Virus record (IMG/VR): IMGVR_UViG_3300043178_000054
Coordinates: 1 to 43,736 of that record
DNA from: a virus
Strand: one strand, 5' to 3'
Length of the DNA stretch: 43,736 nt
How positions within the stretch are numbered: the first letter of the stretch is position 1; every line of letters begins with the position of its first letter. Under the pieces are notes generated by a model, which did no database searches, was not told the origin of the DNA, and saw nothing but the letters and a program-made list of their open reading frames with translations. Made by a program: the position numbers and the translations under genes. Shown in pieces: positions 1,139 to 15,498 of the stretch.

Positions 1139-1515
1139 CAGTAGACTCTCCGGCTTGTCGGCTCACCCCACACGTCCAAACCGGTGATCATCCAGCGAGA
1201 ATCAGCATTCTCGTCCAGAATCTTGAACTTGTAGAACCGGTAGGAGCCAGTCCGCAGCGTTGCAACTTCATCTCCTGTGAGATTCTTGCTTGCAACGAGC
1301 GTTCCGACGTCCTTTCTGTTGTTCTTGGCGTAGATCTCCACCTTGAAAGTGCCTTCAGAGGCCTCCAGGGAGAGCCGACGGAGCAGCTGCTTGACGTCAT
1401 GTACGCCAATCCAGTCAGTCTCCAGGGAGATCTTCCCAACATCGGAGGCATTCCCCACGGAATACTTCGTTCCGTCCGCCCTGGTAACGACAATCGTGGT
1501 GACTCCGCTAGCCAA
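1138..1515 (-). CDS. Hypothetical virion-module protein (about 125 aa, start uncertain)
   Basis: Same frame as track ORF 1138-1758. The first 80 or so codons of that ORF are an Arg/Ser-rich shadow overlapping the upstream gene. A TTG at 1515 sits next to the upstream TAG (1508-1510). Plausible protein from LASGVTTIVVTRADGTKYSV onward. Confidence 0.5.
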   Translation of the reverse strand: MASGVTTIVVTRADGTKYSVGNASDVGKISLETDWIGVHDVKQLLRRLSLEASEGTFKVEIYAKNNRKDVGTLVASKNLTGDEVATLRTGSYRFYKFKILDENADSRWMITGLDVWGEPTSRRVY

Positions 1516-2833
1516 CGCCGGAGATATCCCCACCGTAGCCGCCGGCACCGTAGCCGCCCTCTCCGTAGCCGAGCCCCAAAGTGTAGGCAGCCGTAAAAGA
1601 CAGCGGATCGAGGCTCGGAGCCGCTGGCGTGTCCTGGAAAGACTGCCTCCACACGTTCCCGAGCAAGTCCCCCATGACCGGGAAGGTAAACGCCTCCGGA
1701 ACCGCTGCTGCAGAGCGGACGTACCCAGGCTGGTGGAACGTATTCTGGGAGTAGTCATAGCCGATGGCAGCAGAGACCTCCAGAGAGCCGTCTGCAGGGA
1801 AGAACCAGATCACCCTGTCCATCGTCGGATCGTGCCCTACTACCACCTTGGAGCTCTGATCCAAGTTCAGCCGCGTGAGGTACCAATCCCGCACTCTTGG
1901 ATGATCCAGGTATTGATACTCCGTACCATCGGTCCGCCAGAGGCCCTTTGGACCAGCCCCGTAAAGGACGCGCCCTACGGGCACCACGCTGGACTCTCCG
2001 AATGCCCCGATTCCCTGGAGCGTTCGCACCGTTCCAAACCAGAACGGGTCGCCCAGATACTGCACCAGGTGGCAGGTGTTCAGGCTGAAGGCGGCGGCTC
2101 CATCGAGGAATGGCTTCGCTGCCAGGATTGGCGCTGGGGCATCCTTGATGATGTTGGAACCAGCGGCGTTGTCTGCTGCCGGAAGCCACACAGCCAGGTT
2201 GTTGTCGTCACACCACCAGTAGGTCTGCTCTCCATCCGAGATCTCGTTGTCGGCGGTAGCAGTCGGATGGACGTGGTGGGTGAAGGCGAGCATGTGAGAC
2301 TTGGCGCGAACCAGAAGCGTCGGCTTGAACGCCACCGCAGCCGCGACATGCTCTGCTGGCTTCTTATACGACCCGCCGAAGACATTTGCATGTCCGAGTG
2401 GATGGAAGGTGCTGTTTCCTGGCTTGAACGCACGAAGTTCATCAACCCCGTTGGCAGCCACCATCCACTCGCCCCAGGCCTGCATGGACCAGCGTGTTGC
2501 CAGTCTCTCATTCGTCTGGTTGGCGATGCCCGCATACGCCGTATCCGAGACATCCGTGGTCGTAGGGCTGGCGTAGAGGTCCCCTCGAAAGAGCTTGTCC
2601 CGCTGTCCCCAGAAGAGGATCGGCCGACCACCTCTCTCTGCCTGACCAAAGCCCGTAATCGGCTTGGTGTCCAGTTTTGGGAAGAGTGAAACCTGGCCAG
2701 GCTCCGGCCGAACTGCCTTCTCCCTGAAAATGACGTTGGAGCCCTGTAGCCACGCAACAACTGCGGTGTTCCGCTGCGCAGGTGAAACGCCTTGCGAAAC
2801 ACCTTCAGCGTCGACGTGGATGAGCTTCTTCAT
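1508..2833 (-). CDS. Putative tail/virion structural protein (441 aa)
   Basis: ATG 2833 (MKKLIHVDAEG) overlaps the stop of the fibre-like gene (TGATG). Gly/Tyr-rich C-terminus GYGEGGYGAGGYGG. No family recognised by eye; the call rests on position only. Confidence 0.55.
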   Translation of the reverse strand: MKKLIHVDAEGVSQGVSPAQRNTAVVAWLQGSNVIFREKAVRPEPGQVSLFPKLDTKPITGFGQAERGGRPILFWGQRDKLFRGDLYASPTTTDVSDTAYAGIANQTNERLATRWSMQAWGEWMVAANGVDELRAFKPGNSTFHPLGHANVFGGSYKKPAEHVAAAVAFKPTLLVRAKSHMLAFTHHVHPTATADNEISDGEQTYWWCDDNNLAVWLPAADNAAGSNIIKDAPAPILAAKPFLDGAAAFSLNTCHLVQYLGDPFWFGTVRTLQGIGAFGESSVVPVGRVLYGAGPKGLWRTDGTEYQYLDHPRVRDWYLTRLNLDQSSKVVVGHDPTMDRVIWFFPADGSLEVSAAIGYDYSQNTFHQPGYVRSAAAVPEAFTFPVMGDLLGNVWRQSFQDTPAAPSLDPLSFTAAYTLGLGYGEGGYGAGGYGGDISGVG

Positions 2834-4149
2834 CAGTCGTACCACTCCGCGTCGGCGTAGCCGTGGGCACCGAGCTGGTGCGTTCCAACATCGTCTCCGG
2901 TGAAGATTGCTCCAGATTCACCAGCGGCGAATACAGCACCAGGCCTATCCACCGCAGCGTCCAGGTCTCTCCAGGAGTTCGTCGCCCCCGACGAGGGATT
3001 ATACATGGTAACTGTTGGCGTCCCTCGCATCCTCCGATTGAAGTGCCAGGTCGTCACAGCCTCACCACCAGTCATCATGGCAGTCACTGCTCCCGAGAAT
3101 CCACCTGCCGTCGACCCAGGAGCATTTTCGTAGTTGTAGCTTTTCTGGCAGAACTCCTCACACCGCTGGAGCTCTTCCTGAAAACGATCGCACTGGAGAA
3201 CCGACGAGATGTCCTCAAAAGCGATCCAGAAGTCCGTAACGCAGAACTTGATCGTTGCTGCGTTCATAGCCTTGAGATCGACGTAGACCTCGATCCCATT
3301 CTGCCCATCTGTCAGCGCACCCAAGTCAAACGTCTTGGTGTAGGAGACGGAATCCCCAGCTCCCAGGGGTGCGGCAAATGCGTAGGTGTCCCGCAGCGTC
3401 ATGTTCGCTGCGGCGAACTTCGTTCCTACGCTGTCCGCCCCAGTGTGATTGGTCGTGCGGACCACGAAATCTGGCGTAATCAAGCCGGTCGTTCCGAAGT
3501 GCTTCACCTTCACGCCGAAGGTGATGTTCTTGCTTGCGAGGAGGGCGCCCATCCGACGGCACCACTCCCGACCGAACCGGCTGCCAACCCGCACGTTGGT
3601 AATGCCGGCAGCGCCAGTAAGCTCCAACCCAAGAGGGCTCACCGCTCCATTTGGGAGGTTCCCTCCCCCACGCGCCCAGGACACCGTACCACCGATCGGC
3701 ATGATGAAGATGCGATCCAGCACGAAAACGTCCAGGCCTGCTGCCACCGTTCCAGAGGCGCTTTCACTTGGATTCCGCTGGGAGATCAGACAGCTCCCAT
3801 TCACGAACGCATTCTGGAAGGCGTACTTCCGCGCCAGGTCCATTGCCGTGATGGCAGCTTGCACCGTGGCATAGGCCCCAGAGGCCACTACCTGGGAGGC
3901 ATCCATCTCCTGCAAGACCCAGCCAGTGTTCGTGTTCAGCGTTCCATTGAACCGATAGACCTGCTTGGTGTCGGTCCTGAAGAAGTGCTGACCCTTGAAC
4001 CGGCCGATGACCGACCCCTCGGGAGTGGCTACTCCAGAGAGTGTGAGTCGTGTGTTAGCCTCATCAAAGCCAGCGTCCAGACCCGTATGCCAGCTCGCAT
4101 CCTGGTACGCCTGCTTGTTCAGACCAATGGGAAGCGTTGTGATAGCCAC
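2833..4149 (-). CDS. Tail fibre / receptor-binding protein candidate (438 aa)
   Basis: GTG 4149 with GGAGAC 4 nt upstream, 1 nt after the upstream TGA. G/T/A/N-rich fibre-like composition. No signal peptide. Lies in the tail gene run. Confidence 0.5.
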   Translation of the reverse strand: MAITTLPIGLNKQAYQDASWHTGLDAGFDEANTRLTLSGVATPEGSVIGRFKGQHFFRTDTKQVYRFNGTLNTNTGWVLQEMDASQVVASGAYATVQAAITAMDLARKYAFQNAFVNGSCLISQRNPSESASGTVAAGLDVFVLDRIFIMPIGGTVSWARGGGNLPNGAVSPLGLELTGAAGITNVRVGSRFGREWCRRMGALLASKNITFGVKVKHFGTTGLITPDFVVRTTNHTGADSVGTKFAAANMTLRDTYAFAAPLGAGDSVSYTKTFDLGALTDGQNGIEVYVDLKAMNAATIKFCVTDFWIAFEDISSVLQCDRFQEELQRCEEFCQKSYNYENAPGSTAGGFSGAVTAMMTGGEAVTTWHFNRRMRGTPTVTMYNPSSGATNSWRDLDAAVDRPGAVFAAGESGAIFTGDDVGTHQLGAHGYADAEWYD

Positions 4150-4150
4150 A

Positions 4151-4591
4151 TCAGTCTCCGAAGGTCAGTGCCCAGGTGACTGCAGCAGTACCGCCAGTCT
4201 CCAAAGTGAACTCGCTTGGAAGGAAGCGCGCAAACATCGTACCACCCACACCCGCGTTGAAGAGGCCCATCTCTTTGACGAGCTGCGCAGAGGCGCCACC
4301 TATTAGCGTAGCACTGTAGGTAAGCACGTTGTTGGCACGAGAAACGGAGAGGGCCGCGCGAGCGATCACACCGGACTCAGCAATCAGGGCGGTCTGCCCA
4401 GCTGCCGGCACCGTAGCATCCGTCCCTGCCGCCAGATGTGACGGAGCCGCGGTGCTCCCGTTGTTGGTCCTCACGATCTCCGCGATCGTGTTGAGACCTG
4501 TCGTTACGACAAGGTTACTCCCCCGAATAACCCGCACGAGACGACCAGTTGCGTCTCGAACGACAACCCTCACGCGGCCCTGGATCTTCAC
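4151..4591 (-). CDS. Hypothetical virion-module protein (146 aa)
   Basis: GTG 4591 overlaps the upstream stop (GTGA). The first 90 codons of track ORF 4151-4861 are a Gly/Arg shadow. Plausible protein from VKIQGRVRVVVRDATGRLV onward. Confidence 0.55.
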   Translation of the reverse strand: MKIQGRVRVVVRDATGRLVRVIRGSNLVVTTGLNTIAEIVRTNNGSTAAPSHLAAGTDATVPAAGQTALIAESGVIARAALSVSRANNVLTYSATLIGGASAQLVKEMGLFNAGVGGTMFARFLPSEFTLETGGTAAVTWALTFGD

Positions 4592-4854
4592 GGAGCTGGA
4601 GCCTTCACCGGCGCCGCTGCCGCCTTCCTCGCCAGAACCTTGTCCCGCTCCTGGGCGTTCTGCACGATCTCGGCCTCGACCTCCGCCAGTTCCTCTGCTG
4701 TTGGGCCGCGCCCCTCCGCGATCATGCGCTGGACGTTCTCCCGAGTCCGCTTGACGCGACCTCGAATCTCCGGAGAGGCGGAGAGGGCTGCGAACACCGT
4801 CTCCAGCGCCCGGAGGACGTACCCCAGGATCATCGCGATTGCCGCTGCCTTCAT
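4588..4854 (-). CDS. Small membrane protein, N-terminal TM plus coiled coil (i-spanin/holin-like lysis accessory candidate, 88 aa)
   Basis: ATG 4854 overlaps the upstream stop (ATGA). MKAAAIAMILGYVLRALETVFAAL hydrophobic segment followed by a charged helical region. Adjacent to the endolysin cassette. Confidence 0.55.
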   Translation of the reverse strand: MKAAAIAMILGYVLRALETVFAALSASPEIRGRVKRTRENVQRMIAEGRGPTAEELAEVEAEIVQNAQERDKVLARKAAAAPVKAPAP

Positions 4855-5381
4855 TGTCCATTCTCCGCCAGGATGCGATTCACGATCTCCACAGCCTTGA
4901 GGAGAAACGCTGTCGCAAGTTCGTAGCGTCCGGGTGAGGGTCCGGCCAGAGCTTCGATGCTCCGCACCTCTGCCTCCGTTCGGTCCATGATCTCGTCCAC
5001 CTGTGCACATTCCAAAACTGGTGTGGAAGGCTGCGCGCACCAAGCGTTGACGAGATCGCCCAGTGAAGCGTAGTTCGCCTTGGCGACGTAGTACCGCTGA
5101 GCGGGAGTCTGAGCTCCTGCGCAGGCGAGCATCAACGCCACCAACGTCCCACCGAGCAGCTTGTAGAGCCGCGGCAGCTTTCCAGCCGGAATGGTGTCCA
5201 ACACCAGCGCCCTGACGAGATCGAGCACGAAACTGAACACGCCACCGATGAGAACGACGAGGGCGAGCTCTACTTGCGCGATCTGATCAGTGCCTGCACC
5301 CAGCTTGGCGTCGAGCCACTCCGCGAGGAGCGCTGCCACCAGAACCGAGATCACCGTGTTGAGAGCCTGCTGCAAGGCCAT
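4851..5381 (-). CDS. Multi-pass membrane protein (about 3 TM), holin candidate (176 aa)
   Basis: GGGAG RBS 6 nt upstream of ATG 5381. Hydrophobic segments TVISVLVAALLAEWL, VELALVVLIGGVFSFVLDLV and LLGGTLVALMLACAGA. Immediately downstream of the endolysin. Confidence 0.55.
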   Translation of the reverse strand: MALQQALNTVISVLVAALLAEWLDAKLGAGTDQIAQVELALVVLIGGVFSFVLDLVRALVLDTIPAGKLPRLYKLLGGTLVALMLACAGAQTPAQRYYVAKANYASLGDLVNAWCAQPSTPVLECAQVDEIMDRTEAEVRSIEALAGPSPGRYELATAFLLKAVEIVNRILAENGQ

Positions 5382-5384
5382 GGT

Positions 5385-5753
5385 TCACTCCCTCTTTTGG
5401 TATGTCCAGACGGCTGGAGTTGGGAATCCCATTCCCGCTGGCACGACGTCCAGATGCACGAAGGTGTTAGCCACTCCAACACCAGTGAAACCGAGCATGA
5501 AGGCCAGCTTCAGTATGGCGTGCTTCTCCCCAACCGTCAAGGTTCGCACGTCAGCCGCGAAGCCGGTCTGATGCCGCCCCTTCCCTCCCGCCTCCCCATC
5601 GTGCTTGGGACACCGATAGGCCGAGTTGATGTAGACGGGCTTCCCGAGCTCCTCCCGAAGCTCGTCCAGCAGGTTGATCAGCTCCTGCTTCGTCCGGTTC
5701 TCCCCACAGCACTTGCAGGAGAGTTCCTCCTCTGTGAAGTAGTGCCCCCGCAT
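5385..5753 (-). CDS. Peptidase M15 (M15A-type, zinc D-Ala-D-Ala carboxypeptidase/L-Ala-D-Glu endopeptidase-like) endolysin
   Basis: SAYRCPKHDGEAGGKGRHQTGFAADV and FVHLDV match the H-x6-D...H zinc-ligand pattern of Peptidase_M15 phage endolysins. GAGGGA RBS. No signal peptide. Confidence 0.85.
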   Translation of the reverse strand: MRGHYFTEEELSCKCCGENRTKQELINLLDELREELGKPVYINSAYRCPKHDGEAGGKGRHQTGFAADVRTLTVGEKHAILKLAFMLGFTGVGVANTFVHLDVVPAGMGFPTPAVWTYQKRE

Positions 5754-5794: not shown

Positions 5795-6028
5795 TTACAA
5801 GCCCATCCTCCCACGAACGTTAGCAAGGTCCCTCTCAGCGTCGCTCAAGCGGTCGCCATGGTTGTCCAAGCGACCGTTTACCTTGTCGAGTCGATTGTTC
5901 ACAGCTCTCAACTGTGAATAGCTGACCCCCGCGTGAAACACGATTGCTACCAGCGCTGCAAGCTCAGGCCAGTGCTGTTCCCACCACACGGTCAGCTCCC
6001 CTATTGACAGATCGGCTCCACTTCCCAA
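5795..6028 (-). CDS. Small membrane protein, N-terminal TM plus coiled coil (holin/spanin-like candidate)
   Basis: Track start is TTG 6028. An internal GTG (VWWEQHW) has a better GGGGAG RBS. TM segment WPELAALVAIVFHAGV is followed by the repetitive NNRLDKVNGRLDNHGDRLSDAERDL. Start uncertain. Confidence 0.5.
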   Translation of the reverse strand: MGSGADLSIGELTVWWEQHWPELAALVAIVFHAGVSYSQLRAVNNRLDKVNGRLDNHGDRLSDAERDLANVRGRMGL

Positions 6029-6055: not shown

Positions 6056-8026
6056 TCATTCATCATCCACACCAGGCTCGTAGTCGCCAGTCTTGGGAAC
6101 GGAGTCTCCGTAGGCGTCCGTCGGATAGGCCGTCACCACGCCGTCACCAAGGATGTCGGCTGCCGAGGTGCGGTTGATCACGGTGTCCAGGAAGTCGAAG
6201 TTCGCGCCCGTACCAGGCGTCGCCGAGAACGGATTTACGACGACGGAGCGGTTGTCGATGGACTCCGCGAAGTTCGGGAACTGATCGCACAAGCCCACGC
6301 CAAGGTCCACGCAGAGGTTGTTCTTTGCTACGCCGTTTCCAGCACCCAGGTTGGCAATCGTGTGGGTACTGCTCGCAGCAGCGCCGTTGAACACGACGGC
6401 ATTGCCAATGAGGACATAATCGCTGGTGCCAACGAACGCCCCAAGCAGTCGCACAGTGCCGCTGTTTAGGTTCGACTGATCGTTGATGTTCTGCATCACT
6501 CGCAGACGTTCCATGTCCGAGTCTGGCCCCGGATTAGTCAACTCGATGGCGTGGTCCGTCGGGTTTGAGCCAGTGAACGTGAAAACGTTGCGCAGGATGT
6601 CGCCGTCGTAGGTGCGCGACAGTGTGTCGCTGCTGGAACCCGAACCATTGACCTGAAGGACCACTGCGCCAGCTTCCGACGTGTCCTTGAAGTAGCTGCG
6701 CGTGATCGCGAACACGTTCGAGGACGCGTGCTTCGTACACGGCAGCGAGTTCGATCCACATTGCTGCCGCAGCGCCAGAAGGTTCTTCCCCCCAAACGTG
6801 GCCGGCGACTTGTTAGGGAAGTGCATCGCGTCGATGACCATATAACTGTAGTTAGGCAACCGTATCTGGTGCTCGCCGAAATCGGCGGGAGCCCCAGGCT
6901 GCGTACTATCCACTTCCCCACCGACCCATGCACAGTACCGACACGACACATAGAAAGAGTTATTCCCAGAGTTATGCCGGTTGTAGCTAAACTTGACAAA
7001 GTAAAGCTCGTTTACCATTGGGTCGCCAGGGTTGTCGATTTGCGCAGCTGACGCAAGCTCATCCCCTGACGCCTGGGAAACGTTCGAGTCGATGATTAGG
7101 ACACACCCGGTATCTCCGCTTGCCCGCAGTAGTTTTGGTCCTGTTCCACTCCCTGCAAACGTAACATTATCAAGACGGTAGCCTGCACAGGCGGTATTAC
7201 TGGCCGCAATACCAACATCACCAGAAGATGTAGCGGTGAACTTGAGGGTTGCCTTCCCGGTCCCGTAACTGCTGATGTAACAAGAGTGACCGCCAACCTG
7301 GAGGTTGACCGATCCCGTCGTGAAGGTGACCCCACCTTCGAGCAGTACCATGCGCGGGCCGCCCTGCGTCTCGCAGTAGCGGAGCGCCGTTGCGAGCCCG
7401 CCCGAAGCGATGTTCCCACCATTCGTCGCCCCGGCGGGAGCACCTGGATCGTCTGTGCACGTGGCCTCGTCGCAGAACACGACCTTGTTCGTCGTCGGGT
7501 AGGTCGTGTTCCAGTCCTCAACGCACACATTCAGCGTTGCGCTGTCACTCTCGCGCACGCCGCCGACGAGCGCGCTGACGGTGAGTGTCACCCGGTGAAG
7601 AGAGTTCCCCGCGCCGCTACCGCATGTCTCAGTGAAAGTGCTGGGCTTGAAGGCGTGCGCCGCCACCACGCCGATGCTCTTGCCAAGGTCAACCGTAAGC
7701 CCGCCGCGCGAGACGGTGCCGAGCGAGGAGTCGTCCCAGTCCCAGTCGAACCAGACCTCGGGAACCCAGCCGGTGTCGTTGACTGCCGTTCCGCTCACCG
7801 TCGTAGCAGTCGCCCAGGCCATAACGGGCGTTCCGTACTTGATGTTGAGCGTCCCAGCTGAGCTTTCTGTCGAGGAAGCCGTCTGACCGAAAGACCGCGC
7901 ATTGATTACTACGGAAATGTTGGCACTACCACCTCCCCCGCCGCCACCTGCGCTACCTACCGTAACGCCAGAGAAAGTCTGTGCAGAGGCAGAGACAGCA
8001 AGGAGTAGGGCGAGAAGCAGTCTCAT
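6056..8026 (-). CDS. Exported protein 7 (656 aa): Sec-type signal peptide plus probable right-handed beta-helix (depolymerase/tailspike-like) body
   Basis: ATG 8026 forms an ATGA overlap with the upstream stop. MRLLLALLLAVSASA|QTFSG. 14 Cys in the mature part. Long G/N/S/T-rich repetitive segments. The beta-helix assignment is from composition and periodicity only. Confidence 0.6.
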   Translation of the reverse strand: MRLLLALLLAVSASAQTFSGVTVGSAGGGGGGGSANISVVINARSFGQTASSTESSAGTLNIKYGTPVMAWATATTVSGTAVNDTGWVPEVWFDWDWDDSSLGTVSRGGLTVDLGKSIGVVAAHAFKPSTFTETCGSGAGNSLHRVTLTVSALVGGVRESDSATLNVCVEDWNTTYPTTNKVVFCDEATCTDDPGAPAGATNGGNIASGGLATALRYCETQGGPRMVLLEGGVTFTTGSVNLQVGGHSCYISSYGTGKATLKFTATSSGDVGIAASNTACAGYRLDNVTFAGSGTGPKLLRASGDTGCVLIIDSNVSQASGDELASAAQIDNPGDPMVNELYFVKFSYNRHNSGNNSFYVSCRYCAWVGGEVDSTQPGAPADFGEHQIRLPNYSYMVIDAMHFPNKSPATFGGKNLLALRQQCGSNSLPCTKHASSNVFAITRSYFKDTSEAGAVVLQVNGSGSSSDTLSRTYDGDILRNVFTFTGSNPTDHAIELTNPGPDSDMERLRVMQNINDQSNLNSGTVRLLGAFVGTSDYVLIGNAVVFNGAAASSTHTIANLGAGNGVAKNNLCVDLGVGLCDQFPNFAESIDNRSVVVNPFSATPGTGANFDFLDTVINRTSAADILGDGVVTAYPTDAYGDSVPKTGDYEPGVDDE

Positions 8027-8316
8027 GGCCGAATCGTCCTCAGACAAACAGGTTTCGCGATAGGTACGCTAGGTCCACCGCAGGTTCTTGGAGTCGTCGG
8101 GCAGCAGAGTCGCGCCGCGACCTTCGTATCCAGCTCTACACAGTCCCCAACACGCAGCCCACGCGCAACGACCTGCCATGCTTGCGTCACCTCCAGCTCA
8201 AACGGTACGGCACAGACCGCACCGGGCTGGACGTAGACGATGTGCTTCGGTGGAGGCAGGAACCAGCCCATGCTGAGGAGCATCGGCACCGTGAGTACGA
8301 GCAGCCCCTTGCGCAT
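8023..8316 (-). CDS. Exported/membrane-anchored small protein 6 (97 aa)
   Basis: ATG 8316 overlaps the upstream stop (TGATG) and its own stop overlaps the next ATG (ATGA). N-terminus MRKGLLVLTVPMLLSMGW. 6 Cys. Confidence 0.5.
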   Translation of the reverse strand: MRKGLLVLTVPMLLSMGWFLPPPKHIVYVQPGAVCAVPFELEVTQAWQVVARGLRVGDCVELDTKVAARLCCPTTPRTCGGPSVPIAKPVCLRTIRP

Positions 8317-9047
8317 CAGTCGTCCCCCGCCTCGTAGCTGTCGAGCTGGAATGGGCTGCCTGAGTTACCACCGAGTCCGAGTACGAACTTTCCGTGTGTG
8401 TCGTATGCGGTGCCAGGGTCCGCGTCCAGCGTGCAGGTTCCACCAGCCGCGGCCTGACTGGGCCAGTTCGCCGCGTCGTTGCTGGGCACCGTTGCGTCGA
8501 AGTCGTAGTAGACGACAACCGTGCTAGCCCCCGTCCCAGTGATTGTGACACCAACATAGTCGTTCGCAGCGATAGCCTCAGTGAACGACTCATTGCAGGA
8601 GTTATCAACGAGCGTGTTCGCTGCACCGTCGTCGAACGAGTAGGTGCGCCACTCTGGAGGGGAGCCGGAGTTGATCCGGTAGCCGTCGTTGTTCCCATCT
8701 ACCCGGGCACCCATGAGGATGGTGCCGCTCGCATCTACCCACTGAACCGAAAACGCCACACCCTCGTCACAAGAGCCAGTTGGCGTGTATGCGTAGGTGT
8801 GGGCGGATTGGAAGCCGGAGCCGACCTTCGTGTAGCTCGCCTGGCTACTGGTCTGGGTGATGATGTTGTCCTGGGTACGAATGCGCGCCCAGCCTGAGAT
8901 GCCGCTGATCTCGCCAGAACCGTCAAAGCCCTCTTCGTACCACGTCTCGGTGCAGCCGCCTCCGCCCGTGGGAATCCCCATGATTGGGTTCCCCAGCGCG
9001 GGGAGGGCGAGCAGCGCGACTGCGGCTAACGCGTGTAGACGACGCAT
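8316..9047 (-). CDS. Exported protein 5 (243 aa), lectin/jelly-roll-like by composition
   Basis: MRRLHALAAVALLALPALG|NP signal. 4 Cys in the mature part. Acidic C-terminal tail DSYEAGDD, resembling the tail of the 656-aa protein. Confidence 0.6.
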   Translation of the reverse strand: MRRLHALAAVALLALPALGNPIMGIPTGGGGCTETWYEEGFDGSGEISGISGWARIRTQDNIITQTSSQASYTKVGSGFQSAHTYAYTPTGSCDEGVAFSVQWVDASGTILMGARVDGNNDGYRINSGSPPEWRTYSFDDGAANTLVDNSCNESFTEAIAANDYVGVTITGTGASTVVVYYDFDATVPSNDAANWPSQAAAGGTCTLDADPGTAYDTHGKFVLGLGGNSGSPFQLDSYEAGDD

Positions 9048-10147
9048 GCCGTCAACCTCGTCGGGCTCGAAGCGACCGAAGTGATCGCGAAGTCGAGCGT
9101 GTTCCCAGCCGCCATCGAGCCGGTAAGGCTCGTGTTGTCAGTCTCACCAGAGGCGTCACACACGAGATCGGTACCCATCACGTCTGCAGGCGTCCCGTCG
9201 TCGATCTGGAAATCGAAGTTCACCGTGCCGGTGTCAGTCTCGCACCAAACCTCGGTAATCGTCACGGCGACTGGGGCGCGCCACACGCTCTGAATGTCGT
9301 AGGTACTGGCGATGGTGGAGCCGGGCGTGAAGAGCGGGAAGCACTCCTCCTCGGTAATGTCGAGGTGACCGTCGTCTACTGTGTTGTCGGTAAGCAGCTC
9401 CTCCGCATCGAACTCGCCGTTTGTGTCGGGGGTCAACGTCTTGCTGGCCGCAAGATTCACTCCAGCAATGTCGATTGAGAGGAAGTGAGCACCAAGGTCG
9501 GAGTCCTCAAACAGCTTCCAAAACTGCCCCGCTGTCGAGTTGGCAGCACAGGCAAGCCCGGTCGCGTCGAGCACGCATCCACCCGCTGTCACCGAGGTAG
9601 CTGTAGCAACACCCAGCACGGGTGTCACGAGGGTTGGGCTCGTTGCGAACACGAGCGCTCCGGAGCCTGTGTCGTCGCTGATCACGCCGTCGAGCTGTAC
9701 GGAAGTGGTTGCTGCGAACTGGCTGAGCGGATTCGATGTAAGGGCGTCGCCTCCACCAGGGATCGTTTGGAAACTGCCGTCGTCGCGAAGGAACTTGGTG
9801 CCGTTCGGTGTCCCGGTGATACCGACGAAGCTCACCCACTCCGAGAAGGTGTCGACGCTCGCCTCGAACAGAAAGTTGGCAAGCTCCACATCAATGCCAG
9901 CGATGTGTTCGCGTAGCGAGAGGCCAGTGTCGCTGAGGTCAGCAGGGGTGTAGTTGACCGCAGTACGAACAGTTGTGAAGTCTACCTGTCCGACGGCGAG
10001 CTGGTTGCCCAGCGTGCAGGCATTCAGGTCCGTCCCCAGCAGCGCCTCAGTCGCCGGCGCAGTCGCCCATGTCTTAGTACACGGTGTCGCGCCCGCCGAA
10101 ACTGCCACCAGTAGAAACAGCCAAAGCGCGATTAGACTGCGCATCAT
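9026..10147 (-). CDS. Exported protein 4 (373 aa) with a tail-fibre-type repeat motif
   Basis: ATGATG at 10147, GAGGTG RBS, ATGA overlap with the upstream small ORF. MMRSLIALWLFLLVAVSAGA|TP signal. 8 Cys. FLRDDGSFQTIPGGG ... SPTLVTPVLG resembles motifs common in phage tail fibres. Confidence 0.6.
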   Translation of the reverse strand: MMRSLIALWLFLLVAVSAGATPCTKTWATAPATEALLGTDLNACTLGNQLAVGQVDFTTVRTAVNYTPADLSDTGLSLREHIAGIDVELANFLFEASVDTFSEWVSFVGITGTPNGTKFLRDDGSFQTIPGGGDALTSNPLSQFAATTSVQLDGVISDDTGSGALVFATSPTLVTPVLGVATATSVTAGGCVLDATGLACAANSTAGQFWKLFEDSDLGAHFLSIDIAGVNLAASKTLTPDTNGEFDAEELLTDNTVDDGHLDITEEECFPLFTPGSTIASTYDIQSVWRAPVAVTITEVWCETDTGTVNFDFQIDDGTPADVMGTDLVCDASGETDNTSLTGSMAAGNTLDFAITSVASSPTRLTACVVYTR

Positions 10148-10335
10148 CCATTCACCTCGCAGTCGTTGACGTTGCTCGAGTTGACGAGACAACCCGTTGC
10201 AGGCGTCCCACCTCCACTTGCCCTTTGTTGTGGATACGCCCGCGGGTGCGTCCTCTGGTTCGTGCCGGGCAAGGCAAAACTAATGGCAGCCCACAGCACA
10301 CCAAGCACCAGAAGCAGCTTTGCACAACTCTTCAT
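10144..10335 (-). CDS. Exported small protein 3 (63 aa)
   Basis: Internal ATG of track ORF 10144-10458. ATGA overlaps at both ends (with the stop at 10332-10334 and with the ATG at 10147). MKSCAKLLLVLGVLWAAISFA|LPG. 2 Cys in the mature part. Confidence 0.5.
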   Translation of the reverse strand: MKSCAKLLLVLGVLWAAISFALPGTNQRTHPRAYPQQRASGGGTPATGCLVNSSNVNDCEVNG

Positions 10336-11711
10336 TGCTGTCCAACCAGCCGCTCTCGCATCATCCCAACGTAGTCCAACCGATACGCCAACGTGTTTCC
10401 GCCAGTTGTGTGAACGTAACCAAAGGTGAGATGCACTGGAAGGGATCCTGGAGCCCAAACGAGGTCTGCAGGCTCGATGCAGTGCTTTCGTCCAGCCGCC
10501 GGCACCACCGGAATGCCGTTCACAAAGCAGTCGATGTATCCAGCTACCCAGTTGCCAGAGATATCGTTCTCCAAAAGCCCCCGCATCTCGAGTGTCGTAA
10601 ACGTTGTCGACAGGTTGAACCCCGTATCGAACAAGAACTGTGCCACGTTGCTCTTGTTCATCACAACCTTGACGTTGTTCGCATCGTCAATGAAGAAGCC
10701 AAAGTAGTGCGCGTCGAGAACGGTAGAGGGAACTCCTGCTGTCGTCAGCGGAAGGTCGCCACCGAGGAGTGCGTTGGCCGCACCAAAGAAGAAAGCCCCA
10801 ACCTGCCGCGGTGACTCCGCAAGGCTAACTCTTGTGGTAAGCCCAAACGCCTTCCCAAACGTATTCGGTCCAATGCTAATCCCTAACGAAATCGCAGGGT
10901 TCATCAGGAAGAACCCGTCGGAAGTGTCGCCAGCGGCAGTTCCGAGCTGCGCTGAGGAGTGCAGCTCGTTCGAGGATCCCGTCAGAAGCCGACTGAAAAA
11001 GTTGATCGTGGTAGGTGACCCGACATTGGAGCGTGCCCACCGTGGCGCAATCGCAACATTGCTGCCTGTCGGAGTCAGGCTTGGAGAGCTCTCTGCAACA
11101 GCCGTCCCACCACTGGCTGCCGGCATCGTACCGTTTGCTGTATACGTGTAGGAGAAGGTCTCGTTGAAGTCGTCGAAGAAAGCCTCGTGCCCGGAGGAGA
11201 AGCGAACACCGCTCTCGCTACCGATCTTCGACTCAATCAGGTGTTCGTAAGCTGGGAAGAGGTTCGTCTGTGCGACCCAGCGCCCGCCAGCAGCCACTCG
11301 AATGGCTTCACCAGAACCGCAGGAAACCTTGAGCTTCCCTCCTGCCCCAGCGCTCGTAATCGCCGGCATCAGGTAGTACGGCCCTGCCTTGAGCGACGAG
11401 TAGTCCCCACGCGTCGTAACCGTCGCCGCAAGCGTGGAAGCCGTTGAAGCTGCCGCCTCAGTCCTGGTCAGGTACAAACCGATGCTCGCCGGAATGTTGT
11501 TCGTCGGCTCGGCGAAGATGGTGGGGTCGCCGCCACACTCGATCATGTCGAGCTTGGCCTGATCCCCAGTATCCGCCGCCGTCCAGGTGAACGTAGCCTG
11601 ACCGCCGGACTTGATTGTGCTGACATCCCAGCTTCCTGCCGGAACCGTGGCGGGGAAGAGCAGCGCGAGCAGCGCGAGCAGCGCGAGCAGCGGGAAGAGC
11701 TTCTTGATCAT
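10332..11711 (-). CDS. Exported protein 2 (459 aa), C-terminal half lectin/jelly-roll-like by composition
   Basis: ATG 11711 lies 1 nt after the upstream stop. MIKKLFPLLALLALLALLFPATVPA signal, whose h-region is encoded by a 9-bp x4 tandem repeat. 4 Cys. Confidence 0.6.
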   Translation of the reverse strand: MIKKLFPLLALLALLALLFPATVPAGSWDVSTIKSGGQATFTWTAADTGDQAKLDMIECGGDPTIFAEPTNNIPASIGLYLTRTEAAASTASTLAATVTTRGDYSSLKAGPYYLMPAITSAGAGGKLKVSCGSGEAIRVAAGGRWVAQTNLFPAYEHLIESKIGSESGVRFSSGHEAFFDDFNETFSYTYTANGTMPAASGGTAVAESSPSLTPTGSNVAIAPRWARSNVGSPTTINFFSRLLTGSSNELHSSAQLGTAAGDTSDGFFLMNPAISLGISIGPNTFGKAFGLTTRVSLAESPRQVGAFFFGAANALLGGDLPLTTAGVPSTVLDAHYFGFFIDDANNVKVVMNKSNVAQFLFDTGFNLSTTFTTLEMRGLLENDISGNWVAGYIDCFVNGIPVVPAAGRKHCIEPADLVWAPGSLPVHLTFGYVHTTGGNTLAYRLDYVGMMRERLVGQQ

Positions 11712-11712
11712 A

Positions 11713-12216
11713 CTATCTCCTTCCGAGCACTGCGATCACGCACTGCTCTCCAGCGAGTGGTAAGGTCGTCACCTTGAACACCAGGCTTGGTGAGAGGAAC
11801 CCCCGCAGCGCCACCTGGTTCTGCGTCCCATCCAGCGGATAGGAGGATTCCTCTACACCATCCCCATCGACATCTCCACGGATTGGAGCGATGCCTGTAG
11901 TAGTCGTAACGGTAGCACCAGCCCCCTTGAACGGTGCGTAGAGCTCGACCTGACAGGCACCGGCCGCTCCCTGCAGGATGTCCCCAGCCCGAACGACGTC
12001 CAACACCCAACCGGAGGTCAAGAGCACCGGAGAGAACGAGTTCAACCCCGCTGTGCTGTTGATGCAGTAGTACGCCGCCACGTTGAGTGACAGGTCGGCG
12101 TTGGCGATCTTCCCCGCCGCTGCACAGCTTTGCGACTTGTACCACCCCGTCACGGTTTGCGCCTCCGCAACGGAGGCCAGGAGCAGCAGCGCAAGAGCCA
12201 GGAGAATCTTCTTCAT
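11713..12216 (-). CDS. Exported protein 1 (167 aa)
   Basis: AGGAG RBS 5 nt upstream of ATG 12216. MKKILLALALLLLASVAEA|QTV is a textbook Sec signal with an AxA site. 4 Cys. Contains a GDVDGDG motif. Confidence 0.65.
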   Translation of the reverse strand: MKKILLALALLLLASVAEAQTVTGWYKSQSCAAAGKIANADLSLNVAAYYCINSTAGLNSFSPVLLTSGWVLDVVRAGDILQGAAGACQVELYAPFKGAGATVTTTTGIAPIRGDVDGDGVEESSYPLDGTQNQVALRGFLSPSLVFKVTTLPLAGEQCVIAVLGRR

Positions 12217-12224
12217 CGCGTCTC

Positions 12225-12833
12225 CTAGTAGTCCTCGTGGGCTACAATGAAGCCCGAGGTGGTCAGCGTCCTCACGGACTCATTCCGGAGGTTCTGATAA
12301 TACTGCACGAGATCGGCGTCTCGGCCAACGGGCGCCAGGTTGAGCATCGTCTCCGCCAGGAGGAGATCCTCTGCATCATCCACCAGGTAGTGGCTGAACG
12401 CTCCGTAGCTACTCAACGGCCAATCGCTCCGCCGATAGATCAAGAAATGCAAATCATAGGCTACCGTGGTAGCGAGGAGCGGAAGGAGGAGCTTCTCATT
12501 CTTCACCCAGATGGGAAACTTGTCCTCCAGCGCCTGAGAGTCTAGAAGGACGTGAGGGGATTCCAGGAGCACAATCTCCTGAATCCCCTCCCATCCGCCG
12601 TCCTCTCGCACCTCCCCCGAGATCACACTCTTCACGCGTGCTCCCAGGTCCACCGTAGTCGGTGGGTTGGATGCAGGGTAGTCCTTGGTAACCTCCTCCC
12701 GCATGTAGCGGAAGTTGAACCCACGCTCGAGCTTCCGTGCGGCAAGTCGAACCGCAATCGGAATCTCCGCATCGAGCGCCCCCTTCTCTCCAAGGAGCGC
12801 ATCGACAGTCGCGTGGAAGTCTGCCAGAGTCAT
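12225..12833 (-). CDS. Hypothetical head-completion / head-tail adaptor candidate (202 aa)
   Basis: First gene after the major capsid gene and its hairpin. ATG 12833. The assignment rests on position only. Confidence 0.45.
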   Translation of the reverse strand: MTLADFHATVDALLGEKGALDAEIPIAVRLAARKLERGFNFRYMREEVTKDYPASNPPTTVDLGARVKSVISGEVREDGGWEGIQEIVLLESPHVLLDSQALEDKFPIWVKNEKLLLPLLATTVAYDLHFLIYRRSDWPLSSYGAFSHYLVDDAEDLLLAETMLNLAPVGRDADLVQYYQNLRNESVRTLTTSGFIVAHEDY

Positions 12834-12850
12834 GCATGTACCCAGGGATA

Positions 12851-12881
12851 GGCCCCAAGGCCCATTCCGGACCTTGGGGCC
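12851..12881. terminator. Conserved hairpin family, copy 1 (ggccccaagg-cccattccgga-ccttggggcc) between the capsid gene and the downstream gene
   Basis: Perfect 10-bp stem, 17 nt after the capsid stop and 17 nt before the next ATG. No U-tract. Likely an attenuator or RNA-stabilising hairpin. Confidence 0.6.
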
Positions 12882-12898
12882 GTACCCTCACGCGGGCA

Positions 12899-14158
12899 TC
12901 AGCCCGCAGCCGCTCCAACGAACTTCTGGATGTCGACGAAGGTCTCCGGGTTGTAGATCTCCAGCCCGCCCTCCGTCAGGAACCCCGACATCATCCCGTC
13001 GAGGTCGTTCGCCTCCAGCTTGGGTTGGTACACCATGTTCGCTCCGTCGATGTACCGCCAGCGGAAGTTGTCCATGTCGCAGATCACGATGGAGGCGTCG
13101 CGTCCGTAGTACGCGCTGCCGCCCGTCGTGCCTCCAGTCTGCCGGTTGAACAGCGGATGCGTCTTGAGGACCAGCGTGCCGAAGGGGCAGATGAGCCGGC
13201 GCACGTTCATGCCGAACTCCTTCTGCTCTCCCGTCATGATGATCTTCAGATCCGAGTTCAGCCGCACCAGCTTGTCCAGCGTCACCAGAGCTTGGTTCCC
13301 GCAGAAACCCATCTTCTCGGTGGCGCCGTAGCGGAATGCCAGCTCCAGGATCATCAGCAGCGTCGTGTAGTCCTTGGCCCCACTGTTGTAGGTCTGCCAG
13401 TCGATCACGTTCCCCGCCGCGTTGTCCGCGATGAACTTGATGATCCCACCAGTGCTCCGTCGAGGCTCCGAGCCCGACAGGTCCTCCGACCGCACGCCGA
13501 ACCACAGCGCCCGCTCGATGCCGATGCCGTGCAGCTGCAGCGTCTCCCGCTTCGACTCGGCCACCTGAGGCCCCGTCCGCAAGCGGGTCTTCTGCGCCGT
13601 GCGCGAGAGCGCCAGCGTGTCGCGGAAGATCTGCGTGTAGTTGAAGTATTTGGTCGCCTGGAAGCTCACCGACGGGGGCGCGCTGGAGTTCTCCGGCAGC
13701 GCCGAACCGACCATGAGCAGCTTCGGGTTGACACCCGCCCCGTTGAACGTCACCGCAGTCACCGTCGTACCGGCGAAGCCACGCACGCAGTCGACCGAAG
13801 TGTCGCTCGTCGGGGTGTTCGCAACCCGCAGGAGCTCGCCGGTCTGCTCGACGTACAGGATGTCGCCGGCCTTGAGGCTTCTCGCCCCGTTCCGGACGCC
13901 GGACTCGGCGAGCACCGTCACCGTGTCCGTACCTGCCGTGGCGTCGAGGTTGGCCCCGAGCTCCAGCCGGTAGTCCATCATCGTCTTGCTGTACCAGGCG
14001 AACTCCGGATCGTCCACCTTGGACTTCCGGAGCTTGTCCAGCATCGCCGTCAGGGGGAGATCCCCATTCGGGAAGAGAAGCATGAGGGATTCGAGAAACG
14101 ACTTGGGCCGCTGGTCGGTCACCCAGTCGTCGGTTGCACGCACGCCTGCGATCGCCAT
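12899..14158 (-). CDS. Major capsid protein (HK97-fold type inferred), 419 aa
   Basis: ATG 14158 with an AAGGTG RBS (the track start at 14230 adds 24 implausible codons). Size and position immediately after the Ala/Pro/Gly-rich scaffold and the portal, followed by a strong hairpin. The fold is not verifiable by eye. Confidence 0.75.
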   Translation of the reverse strand: MAIAGVRATDDWVTDQRPKSFLESLMLLFPNGDLPLTAMLDKLRKSKVDDPEFAWYSKTMMDYRLELGANLDATAGTDTVTVLAESGVRNGARSLKAGDILYVEQTGELLRVANTPTSDTSVDCVRGFAGTTVTAVTFNGAGVNPKLLMVGSALPENSSAPPSVSFQATKYFNYTQIFRDTLALSRTAQKTRLRTGPQVAESKRETLQLHGIGIERALWFGVRSEDLSGSEPRRSTGGIIKFIADNAAGNVIDWQTYNSGAKDYTTLLMILELAFRYGATEKMGFCGNQALVTLDKLVRLNSDLKIIMTGEQKEFGMNVRRLICPFGTLVLKTHPLFNRQTGGTTGGSAYYGRDASIVICDMDNFRWRYIDGANMVYQPKLEANDLDGMMSGFLTEGGLEIYNPETFVDIQKFVGAAAG

Positions 14159-14162
14159 GTTT

Positions 14163-15212
14163 TCACCTTGTCCGCGGGGGCACGAGCCCCGCGATTTCCA
14201 GAACGTCATCCAGGTGCGCGTTGTCCGCATTTGTGTCTACGCCCACCGGAGCCATGCCTGCCGGCCGCGTACTCGCTCCACGCATCCTCGGATGCTGAAC
14301 GACACGCGACGGAGGCGGCGACTCGGGCGGTGCGCTGGCCGGCACCACCTGGCTGAGGATCGAGAAGACCCTCTCCCCGATCTTGTCGCGCAGTTCGGGG
14401 CTCCAGGCCTTTGCCCCCAGCTCCACAGACACTTGCTGTGTCGCGATCTGCACGAGAGAACGAAGCTCCGGCCTGTTGAGGCTCGGGAACTTCGTGTAGA
14501 AGTCGGACACCATGGACTGGGCTTCGCCGGAGCGGCGGAGCTCCTGCTGGATGTTGGTCGCCAGCTCCTTGTTCTGCGCTTCGACCCAGCTCCGATACTC
14601 CTGTCGAAGATTCCGGTGGGCTGCCTGCAGCGCGCCGGAGAACATGGCCTGCATCCCCTTGATCCGGTCTTGCGGCTCCTCGGAGAGGATCAACGCAGCA
14701 ACCTCTTGGGGGATGTTGAAGACGTAAGGCGGCAACGGCTCCTGCGCAGGAGCGGCCGCACCAGGGGCCCCAGGAGCACCAGACCCAGGGACCCCGCCGG
14801 GACCACCTGGGGGGAGCCCCTTCCCCGTTCGCAGCGCCTCCACAAGCGCCGCATTCTGCTCCATCAGAAGCCGCGTCGTCTTCGTCAGCTCCTGAATGGA
14901 ATCCGCTGTGGGCGCGGCGGCGGGGGCGGGTGCCGCAGCCGCTCCGGCTGCAGGAGCCGGCGTTCCAGCAGTAGGAGCAGCCGCAGCAGTTGCCGGCGGC
15001 GGCGCATTTCCCTCGCCCTTGGTGGGCGCACCACCAGCCGGAGCGGCCGCAGGTTCCTCGGCATCCGGCACATCCTCCTCGAACCCCTCCGTGAAGGGGT
15101 CAAAGCGAAGGACGTCCTCAACGCTCAGATCACGTTGGGGGGAGGTCTCCGTCGGAGTCGGCGTCGCTGCCGTCGGAGTCTCCGGCGTATTTGTCGTCGG
15201 CACTTCGCTCAT
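14163..15212 (-). CDS. Scaffolding protein candidate (349 aa)
   Basis: ATG 15212 (MSEVPTTNTPE) with a GGAG RBS. Long Ala/Pro/Gly low-complexity region followed by a helical C-terminal half. Lies between portal and capsid. Overlaps the upstream gene by about 83 nt. Confidence 0.6.
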   Translation of the reverse strand: MSEVPTTNTPETPTAATPTPTETSPQRDLSVEDVLRFDPFTEGFEEDVPDAEEPAAAPAGGAPTKGEGNAPPPATAAAAPTAGTPAPAAGAAAAPAPAAAPTADSIQELTKTTRLLMEQNAALVEALRTGKGLPPGGPGGVPGSGAPGAPGAAAPAQEPLPPYVFNIPQEVAALILSEEPQDRIKGMQAMFSGALQAAHRNLRQEYRSWVEAQNKELATNIQQELRRSGEAQSMVSDFYTKFPSLNRPELRSLVQIATQQVSVELGAKAWSPELRDKIGERVFSILSQVVPASAPPESPPPSRVVQHPRMRGASTRPAGMAPVGVDTNADNAHLDDVLEIAGLVPPRTR

Positions 15213-15498
15213 TCTCACTCTCCAGTTCGGCCATGCCGAACAACTGCTCGAGCGCTTGGACATATCCCTCTGAGATGCCCTGAAGCTTTCGAGCCTTCGC
15301 CAAGCTCTCCTCACCCCACAGCGGCATCGCAGCAATCTGCGAGGCCATCCCCGCACACTCTATCAACACATGGCCAAGGGCCTTCTGCATCGTAGGGTGC
15401 CGAAGAACGCCAGTGAGCCAGAGGCGCTCGGATTCTGAGAGATTGCCATCTTGCAAAGCCAGGAGCTGCGACTTCCTCTGAAACTCCGCAAACTTCAC
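15130..15498 (-). CDS. Hypothetical protein with an acidic C-terminal tail (122 aa)
   Basis: GTG 15498 overlaps the portal stop (GTGA). C-terminus ENERSADDKYAGDSDGSDADSDGD. Confidence 0.55.
   Translation of the reverse strand: MKFAEFQRKSQLLALQDGNLSESERLWLTGVLRHPTMQKALGHVLIECAGMASQIAAMPLWGEESLAKARKLQGISEGYVQALEQLFGMAELESENERSADDKYAGDSDGSDADSDGDLPPT

Follow-up and report, generated by a model that had tools for sequence, protein, structure and literature searches.

Seven consecutive late genes with predicted signal peptides beside the lysis genes of an uncultured tailed phage, and their possible action on host surface glycan

The virion and accessory proteins of tailed phages are cytoplasmic until lysis in textbook accounts, save for a few small lysis and exclusion proteins. 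The IMG/VR virus record IMGVR_UViG_3300043178_000054, analysed here over its whole length of 43,736 nt (the window), raises the question of why a tailed phage should carry a block of seven adjacent minus-strand genes (6056-12216) whose products all start like Sec-exported proteins. The block spans 6161 nt, or 14% of a 43,609-bp genome, in agreement with the 6.2 kb and about 14% given in the preliminary description of this DNA. This share of the genome encodes large predicted exported proteins of host-recognition kinds, and such runs recur across three structural gene sets. We favour, with about even confidence, the reading that the block encodes disulfide-stabilised proteins which are exported as a module and act, along with lysis, on the surface glycan of the host.

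The genes are named by the length of their products in residues and run from g167, the first block gene, through g459, g63, g373, g243 and g97 to g656 (Table 1). All seven open reading frames (ORFs) are confirmed, together with the start codons, N-termini and junctions reported in the preliminary description. A Shine-Dalgarno-like motif is positioned 5-13 nt upstream of six of the seven genes (AGGAG, AAGGAG, GAGGTG, GAGG, GAGG and GAGGA). The remaining gene, g63, has a weak ribosome-binding motif only and relies on an ATGA overlap. This gene had been picked out from inside a longer ORF, and it is also called in an independent assembly of the same phage (Logan SRR12687342, L009), in which the gene calls are identical. 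The block junctions comprise a 1-nt gap, ATGA overlaps, a 22-nt overlap and a TGATG overlap. Internal promoter or terminator signals in the block do not exceed shuffled expectation, with a promoter model that may not fit this host, and no integrase match is found among the window ORFs scanned. Therefore, late expression is likelier than expression as a prophage moron, and with the coupled and overlapping junctions added, the idea of a prophage moron is dropped.

Signal peptides are assigned by a heuristic rule of our own and by conservation in homologues. The rule requires a basic n-region without an acidic residue, at least 10 uncharged hydrophobic residues, and then a small-x-small site. It accepts six of the seven block proteins, g97 failing the strict rule only. 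Outside the block, it accepts three of ~420 other ATG-initiated frames of at least 60 codons in the six frames of the window (~0.7%), namely the 88-residue membrane protein of the lysis cassette and two spurious frames. This base rate within the same genome speaks against an artefact of GC composition. The n-regions of all seven proteins are short and basic and contain no acidic residue (MKK, MIKK, MK, MMR, MRR, MRK and MR). The best 8-residue Kyte-Doolittle window scores 2.4-3.4 in all seven, versus at most 1.7 in the signal-free fibre and nozzle-like proteins of the same phage. Cleavage is predicted at AEA/Q, VPA/G, SFA/L, AGA/T, ALG/N and ASA/Q (the slash marks the cut), and in g97 only at SMG/W. 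A lipobox (L-[AS]-[GA]-C) at the end of the h-region is absent from all seven, which rules out g63 and g97 as spanins; some homologues do have one (LVVGC in P0005, LSAC in P0018). The twin-arginine (Tat) motif S/T-R-R-x-F-L-K is found in none of the seven, and only g243 has RR (positions 2-3), without a preceding n-region or F-L-K. Export by the Tat route is thus ruled out.

The hydrophobic N-termini are kept in homologues of only 33-50% identity, indicating that they are functional. Homologues might have started downstream and lacked the hydrophobic segment, as the preliminary description considered. Instead, their starts coincide with those of the block proteins, and all 21 intact starts among the g656 homologues keep a basic residue, a Leu/Ala core and a small-x-small site. 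The cleavage site in this family is often A/Q, followed by a Gly-rich linker, and the signal sequence itself drifts freely. The N-terminal module of g459 (N-module) recurs in proteins of 125-1015 residues, every full-length one of which has a signal peptide at its start. Likewise, 14 of 14 other proteins containing the C-terminal domain of g373 start with a signal peptide, and a relative of g97 in L020 has a canonical signal with a VWA/S site. The rule, the low base rate and the conservation in homologues together bear out the claim of Sec-type signal peptides on seven consecutive genes.

A poly-Gly stretch of 5-12 residues follows the signal in many homologues (P0004, P0013, P0016, P0018 and P0027; the 898- and 372-residue proteins of L010; the 244-residue proteins of L011 and L017). 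Two different proteins of L010 have the mature N-terminal peptide APNATGPKSG(G)n in common. Such an N-terminus might serve as a flexible tether or as a docking peptide that the proteins share.

In bacteria that have a DsbA-type system, even numbers of cysteines are favoured among the exported proteins. The block proteins contain 43 cysteines in 2058 residues (~2.1%; single counts in Table 1), versus 0.40% in the other late proteins: the portal has 1, TerL 3, and the 1436- and 428-residue proteins none. The contrast drawn in the preliminary description is therefore confirmed, and the parity extends further. Of the 29 signal-bearing proteins of the window, L010, L011, L017 and L019, every one has an even number of cysteines in its mature part. 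Such parity is what fully disulfide-paired extracytoplasmic proteins are expected to show. Export of the block proteins and their oxidative folding are well supported at the level of sequence.

Is the arrangement peculiar to one phage? Three other contigs, of which two are podovirus-like and one is prophage-like, have runs of four to five signal-bearing genes immediately upstream of their lysis genes. In the myovirus L022, the signal-bearing genes form groups of three and two, parted by one signal-free gene, between baseplate and lysis genes, and their products have even cysteine numbers. Related phages thus keep the cluster, and this check proposed in the preliminary description comes out in its favour. 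The signal-bearing pattern is seen in contigs of 39%, 47%, 58% and 61-67% GC and, as far as sequences tell, is not limited to one phage lineage or GC range. In each phage contig that has a g656 relative, this gene is the last of the block before the lysis genes. In the window, L010, L011 and L017, holin-like and endolysin genes come right after the beta-helix gene. In the window, the capsid and g202 genes are upstream of the block and the genes of an XhlA-like protein and an M15 endolysin are downstream, as expected from its earlier placement between head genes and lysis cassette. In the window and in L017, the lysis genes stand between the block and the adaptor, nozzle or fibre genes. Only the fibre-like and beta-helix members are common to the contigs, and the remaining block content is mosaic.

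Eight distant capsid relatives from IMG/VR without a g656 gene (L001-L008), taken as negative controls, have 0-2 signal-like genes each and no run. Among 50,697 GenBank phage records, megablast with the block and tblastn with g656 give no match, and g373 matches through its fibre repeat only, in two uncultured records; no cultured phage with block relatives is found there. An exact-DNA scan of JGI metagenomes for an upstream extension of L011 finds nothing.

What kinds of proteins are these? The AlphaFold2 model of g656 (predicted local distance difference test (pLDDT) 84; predicted template modelling score (pTM) 0.89) comprises an N-terminal beta-sandwich and then a right-handed beta-helix. 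Its best Foldseek matches in the PDB are GH87 alpha-1,3-glucanase, chondroitinase B, PL6 alginate lyases, GH28, and the HK620 and Sf6 tailspikes, with a best E-value of only 7e-4 and TM-scores of only 0.3-0.47. The predicted fold and its glycanase, lyase and tailspike matches are in line with the earlier description of g656 as beta-helix- or depolymerase-like.

There are 26 relatives of g656 at 33-49% identity. A scan of IMG/VR with the g656 alignment finds no relative; four genome-bin loci carry one (L013, L015, L016 and L018). These cellular relatives have signal peptides or a lipobox. The L013 relative, from a Polyangiaceae bin, is encoded in the middle of a 116-kb contig that has no further match to proteins of the window phage, and it is a lipoprotein (LVVGC) among other lipoproteins. 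The other three of the four are signal-bearing and lie within or beside a polysaccharide locus with genes for WecG, Wzx, Wzy, GT2 glycosyltransferases, sulfotransferases, an EpsI/DUF3485 exosortase partner and chain-length ATPases. These three (loci L015 148-21632, L018 1-15091 and L016) look like an uncharacterised secreted component of such polysaccharide loci. The relatives in L015 and L018 end in a Pro/Thr-rich linker and APVLL, and that of L016 is cut by the contig end. A 2.6-kb Kofleriaceae contig (L014) has the phage-type order, a g97 relative and then a beta-helix gene. Judging by the metagenome bins, the hosts are weakly indicated to be Myxococcota-like; more firmly, the phage g656 appears by sequence relationship to derive from a secreted-protein family tied to exopolysaccharide production.

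The acidic ends of two otherwise unrelated proteins, DSYEAGDD in g243 (8316-8345) and GDYEPGVDDE in g656 (6056-6090), had been listed among the features of the block. The likeness is real but does not count as evidence. Nearly all phage-type g656 relatives end in ..DY[DE]xGVDDE, and the cellular ones run on past this point. The tail of the g656 family is a normal domain end (D-x-G-[VL]-x-E), shared besides by g243 only, and the idea of a sorting signal is dropped.

The model of g459 (pLDDT 75) comprises a small beta-sandwich and a jelly roll like those of concanavalin A and legume lectins. The C-terminal domain has 212 PDB matches at E<=1e-3, with legume lectins on top and TM-scores of at most 0.52 on the target; in a viral structure library, g459 matches concanavalin-A-like proteins and minor tail proteins. 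This lectin-like module occurs both with and without a signal peptide. In beta-helix proteins, the N-module can be N-terminal, as in P0006, or C-terminal, as in P0002. Its occurrence at a C-terminus speaks against a virion anchor and suggests, from sequence comparison, a mobile module resembling a carbohydrate-binding module.

In g373, the tail-fibre-type motif noticed before is real. Residues ~125-200 form a fibre repeat, GGGDAL..NPLSQFAATTS.QL.GVISDETGSG.LVFATSPTLVTP.LG, with more than 2000 database matches, a match to PHROG 6002 (4.8e-11) and one GenBank record named 'tail fiber protein'. The repeat is common to many fibres without a signal peptide, at 60-87% identity. The C-terminal domain with four conserved cysteines is found only in signal-bearing proteins, and the ~100 residues after the signal peptide have no relatives outside the signal-bearing group. 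There is no similarity of g373 to the phage's own 438-residue fibre (g438) or to other tail proteins.

Searches of Pfam, PHROGs, NCBIfam and PDB sequences give no match for six of the seven block proteins. No relative of g243 is found among 5.8 billion proteins, and none of g167 is detectable in family libraries. Relatives of g97 are located upstream of the beta-helix gene in L014 and beside a g459-type gene in L020. The C-terminal peptide of g63, CLVNSSNVNDCEVNG, is conserved in L011 and P0164. At the g63/g373 junction (window ~10140-10170; L011 8092-8150), a 27-nt sequence, GTCAACGACTG[C/T]GAGGTGAA[T/C]GGATGA, matches at 25 of 27 positions. It spans the peptide VNDCEVNG, the ribosome-binding site and the overlapping stop and start codons. 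The g373 proteins of the two phages are only ~50% identical, and VNDCEVNG also terminates an unrelated N-module protein, P0164. Such conservation would fit a coupling signal, a recombination joint or a functional peptide.

In the favoured reading, the seven genes would be expressed late and with coupled translation, as a module of Sec-exported proteins. By their signal peptides, the proteins would be carried across the inner membrane, where they would fold with disulfide bonds, and they would stay outside the cytoplasm, in the periplasm, at the cell surface or, after lysis, in the medium. With the adjacent lysis cassette, they would work on host exopolysaccharide or capsule: cutting and binding of nascent and surface polysaccharide would let progeny escape the matrix and would destroy or mask receptors on the dying cell and on its debris. 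The putative parts are a glycanase- or lyase-type beta-helix protein, a lectin-like protein and a fibre-like protein whose knob is Cys-knotted; the other four are small or orphan partners. We infer the actual export, enzymatic activity, substrate and biological role of the block. A glycan target for g656 and g459 is supported by the models. We regard the module as glycan-directed because of the two predicted folds and because of the cellular relatives inside polysaccharide loci. Export as a module is favoured because the signal peptide is kept from the cellular g656 family, because the block is tied to lysis genes in three genome layouts and parted from tail genes in two, because the phage has its own signal-free fibre and nozzle-like protein, and because the N-module behaves as a mobile carbohydrate-binding module. 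The conserved N-termini, the cysteine parity, the signal-bearing cellular relatives, the folds and the polysaccharide-locus context thus support the exported, glycan-directed module that the preliminary description had put forward as one of two options, the other being fibre-like proteins that reach the virion by an unusual route.

Several points weigh against this reading. The domain types are those of virion receptor-binding proteins (a fibre repeat, the collagen-like repeats in L023, a beta-helix and a lectin knob), and the signal-bearing run of L022 occupies the usual tail-fibre slot of a myovirus. Elongated fibres would be odd as soluble periplasmic factors. For a depolymerase that lysis releases, a signal peptide is not strictly required, except where disulfide folding calls for one. 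Four of the seven proteins (g167, g63, g243 and g97) have no assignable fold or family. In addition, g656 could be a binding protein instead of an enzyme, since a search with it and its 22 aligned relatives gives no Pfam, NCBIfam or PDB sequence match, profile search included.

In the main alternative, the proteins would be the receptor-binding and depolymerase appendages of the phage, virion fibres matured in the periplasm, exported for disulfide folding and docked on cytoplasm-assembled particles at holin opening or in the lysate. We hold this explanation to be less likely, and so too, as a tentative generalisation, the proposal that uncultured short- and contractile-tailed phages build Sec-exported, signal-cleaved, disulfide-bonded receptor-binding fibres and depolymerases in the periplasm, with virion assembly divided between two compartments. 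All assignable block domains are of the receptor-binding type. In particular, the g373 repeat closely resembles that of signal-free fibres, L023 encodes a collagen-like signal-bearing protein, the L022 run comes right after a baseplate wedge gene and a short signal-free fibre-like gene, and the g459 lectin-like module is not confined to signal-bearing proteins. The mosaic block content is as in host-range modules. It is classical knowledge that P22 tailspikes or T4 fibres can be added to particles in vitro. There is also a precedent for completing particles after release, in the tail-less cf-PICI capsids, which join phage tails (bioRxiv 10.1101/2025.02.11.637232); as the docking of fibres would require, these particles are completed outside the cell, but they join two cytoplasm-made parts and involve no exported component or signal peptide. 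However, no shared or recognisable virion-attachment domain is found among the seven proteins, the N-module is not fixed at the N-terminus, and the literature yields no tailed-phage virion protein that is known to have a cleaved Sec signal. The linkage to lysis genes, the separation from tail genes in two layouts and the presence of signal-free fibre and nozzle genes also argue against virion fibres, and docking would compete with dilution at lysis.

Small exported exclusion proteins are encoded beside tail-fibre or lysis genes in coliphages: T5 Llp, Cor of T1, phi80 and N15, and lambda Lom, which is exported and lies in the tail-fibre region. The block proteins might accordingly bind envelope receptors for superinfection exclusion or receptor masking only, with no role in release, and lectin-like and fibre-like binding domains are indeed present. 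We consider this improbable. The known cases are single small lipoproteins or outer-membrane proteins, whereas here there are five to seven proteins of up to 1094 residues, an enzyme-like beta-helix included. In addition, products of a late operon of an apparently virulent phage would be made too late to protect replication, and the block proteins show no similarity to the signal-free fibre of the phage. Less probable still is that the proteins are not exported at all, and that their N-termini are by-products of high GC, result from wrongly called starts or serve as membrane tethers during assembly in the cytoplasm. Leu and Ala codons abound in high-GC genomes, but the rule seldom accepts other frames of the same genome and the pattern persists in contigs down to 39% GC. 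The starts are backed by ribosome-binding motifs, independent gene calls and homologues starting at the same point; the basic n-region predicts an N-in, C-out topology; and the unbroken even parity argues for oxidative folding.

How does the exported, glycan-directed module compare with known systems? AlgL, AlgG, PslG and BcsZ are periplasmic glycan-processing enzymes encoded in exopolysaccharide loci, and AlgG is a periplasmic beta-helix. Three of the four cellular g656 relatives resemble them in being signal-bearing and in or beside loci of the Wzx/Wzy, sulfotransferase and exosortase type. There is, however, no sequence similarity, and g656 itself is phage-borne beside lysis genes. With the P22, Sf6 and HK620 tailspikes and with free and virion-bound capsule or EPS depolymerases, g656 shares the predicted right-handed beta-helix and the presumed substrate, surface polysaccharide. 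The tailspikes known so far lack a signal peptide, fold in the cytoplasm and bind the particle through an N-terminal domain; g656, in contrast, has a signal peptide, 14 cysteines and an N-terminal beta-sandwich, and its nearest relatives are cellular secreted proteins. T5 Llp, Cor, and lambda Lom and Bor are exported phage exclusion or moron proteins near tail-fibre genes, and like the block proteins they are phage-encoded, signal-bearing and envelope-acting.

In Porphyromonas phages, signal-bearing genes of unknown function encode proteins whose cleavage exposes an N-terminal Gln (PMC10367356), as predicted here for g167, g656 and many homologues. These cases and those of Llp, Cor, Lom and Bor are isolated small genes, often prophage-expressed, whereas the block is a coupled run of five to seven large genes for proteins like receptor-binding proteins. 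Sec-exported lysis proteins of phages include the signal-peptide endolysin Lys44 of fOg44, signal-arrest-release (SAR) endolysins, the Rz/Rz1 spanins and the T4 antiholin RI (PMC6116005). Like the block, they are late genes with N-terminal Sec signals at the lysis cassette, and their products are outside the inner membrane before the holin fires. They are, however, small and act on peptidoglycan, outer membrane or holin. The block proteins reach 656 residues, are Cys-rich, have fibre, lectin and beta-helix features and no muralytic domain or lipobox, and the phage's own endolysin is signal-free. A survey of prophage carbohydrate-active enzymes reports signal peptides in 5% (PMC13507307). In the full-text literature, we find no description of a coupled run of large, Cys-paired, exported proteins of the receptor-binding kind beside lysis genes, in agreement with the preliminary statement that no equivalent is described. 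The block may be a variant of exported phage envelope proteins combined with phage depolymerases, and there is a real chance that it is categorically new.

If the products are release or receptor-destroying factors, they would represent an envelope or matrix lysis step for hosts embedded in exopolysaccharide, and would offer glycan binders and depolymerases that are secretion-competent and disulfide-stabilised. As virion parts, they would define a new assembly route in which phages adopt the disulfide-dependent glycan-binding domains of host secreted proteins. Either way, such proteins would be misjudged by annotation pipelines in which any fibre-like or beta-helix phage protein counts as a virion receptor-binding protein, and by host-range predictors built thereon. 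A run of at least four signal peptides, even cysteine counts and adjacency to lysis genes can serve as a search signature.

The surroundings of the block are those of a tailed phage. Bases 1-127 of the window are an exact repeat of 43610-43736 (127 bp), indicating a circularly closed assembly with the true length of 43,609 bp. The late operon crosses the window ends. The genome has a GC content of ~60% and no tRNA genes. Replication functions occupy the plus strand at 23-37 kb (a UvrD-type helicase, a PD-(D/E)XK nuclease, a DUF3987 protein and a family-A polymerase). On the minus strand, the late gene order is TerL, portal, capsid, the 202-residue protein, the seven-gene block, lysis genes and tail module. 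A closer relative, L021, has 55-57% identity in TerL, portal and capsid and matches Pfam SU10_portal and SU10_MCP. Therefore, the head of the window phage is of SU10 (Kuravirus) type. These matches of L021, with PHROG 1328, portal and TerL in the window, rule out an internal-membrane (tectivirus-like) virus. The tail module contains a 146-residue protein (g146), the fibre g438, a nozzle-like protein (g441) and small proteins. The fibre g438 matches PHROG 4492, and its relative in L017 adjoins an SU10-type adaptor. Three proteins encoded across the origin (g281, g428 and g1436) are probably ejection or internal virion proteins.

Table 1. Features of the window and of contigs with signal-bearing genes (positions of the window, or of the contig where a contig is named; aa, amino acids)
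Feature	Coordinates	Strand	Remarks
g167	11713..12216	-	first block gene; signal peptide MKKILLALALLLLASVAEA, then predicted cleavage before Q; 4 Cys
g459	10332..11711	-	signal peptide; beta-sandwich N-module (~120 aa, ~22-150); concanavalin-A/legume-lectin-like jelly roll (~170-459); 4 Cys
g63	10144..10335	-	small, signal-bearing; 3 Cys, one inside the signal (2 mature); translationally coupled on both sides
g373	9026..10147	-	signal peptide; fibre repeat; C-terminal domain with four conserved Cys; 8 Cys
g243	8316..9047	-	signal-bearing orphan; acidic C-terminus; 4 Cys
g97	8023..8316	-	small, hydrophobic N-terminus; 6 Cys
g656	6056..8026	-	signal peptide MRLLLALLLAVSASA, then predicted cleavage before Q; poly-Gly linker; beta-sandwich 36-170; right-handed beta-helix; 14 Cys
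TerL	17535-19346	-	
Portal	15495-17519	-	
Major capsid protein	12899-14230	-	PHROG 1328 (major head protein)
g202	12225..12833	-	Cys-free, 202 aa; between major capsid gene and block; equal position in L021
XhlA-like protein, lysis cassette	5795..6028	-	77 aa; directly downstream of block
Peptidase_M15 endolysin, lysis cassette	5385..5753	-	no signal peptide
Holin candidate	4851..5381	-	176-aa multi-pass membrane protein (g176); 62% identical to L011 counterpart
88-aa protein, lysis cassette	4588..4854	-	N-terminal membrane segment
Tail module	1508..4149	-	signal-free; downstream of lysis genes; 438-aa fibre (g438) and 441-aa nozzle-like protein (g441)
g281, g428, g1436	include 42870-43715 and 37273-42866	-	281, 428 and 1436 aa; across origin; no Cys
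ParB-N/DNA-methylase fusion	31815-33152	+	
UDG plus 3'-5' exonuclease ORF	33152-34195	+	half of split family-A polymerase
Polymerase ORF	34492-35985	+	other half of split family-A polymerase
L011, 46.6-kb phage, 67% GC			Cys-free ejection-type proteins; five signal-bearing genes (925, 75, 373, 244, 640 aa); holin-like genes; NlpC/P60; g176 relative
L017, 53.6-kb phage, 65% GC			capsid; 262 aa; five signal-bearing genes (154, 371, 438, 244, 648 aa); XhlA-like; DUF5675; lipoprotein; then SU10-type adaptor; signal-free g438 relative; 685-aa protein; two more signal-bearing genes
L010, end of 120-kb contig beside integrase, 47% GC			signal-bearing 168 aa; signal-free 76 aa; four signal-bearing (898, 480, 252, 668 aa); XhlA-like; SLT lysozyme
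L021, closer relative of window, 55% GC			capsid; g202 relative; g459 relative; signal-bearing protein of at least 1094 aa with 28 Cys
L023, partial, 58% GC	7400-11053		four signal-bearing genes, one with collagen-like Gly-X-Y repeats
L022, myovirus, 61% GC	7606-14618		baseplate wedge; signal-free 364-aa fibre-like; signal-bearing 137, 305, 207, 482, 1050 aa; holin-like, lipoprotein, DUF5675

One further contig of 39% GC, L019 (1-12757), encodes TerS, TerL, portal, ClpP protease, capsid, head closure, gp10-like and tail completion proteins (HK97-type). A signal-bearing 564-residue fibre-like gene follows its head and connector genes, and no tube or tape-measure gene is visible. L019 may be a short-tailed phage or a capsid-forming satellite. 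In the window, g281 contains a glycine-zipper membrane motif, and the gene preceding it (~155-784, minus strand) encodes a terminal run of ~30 nearly pure Gly.

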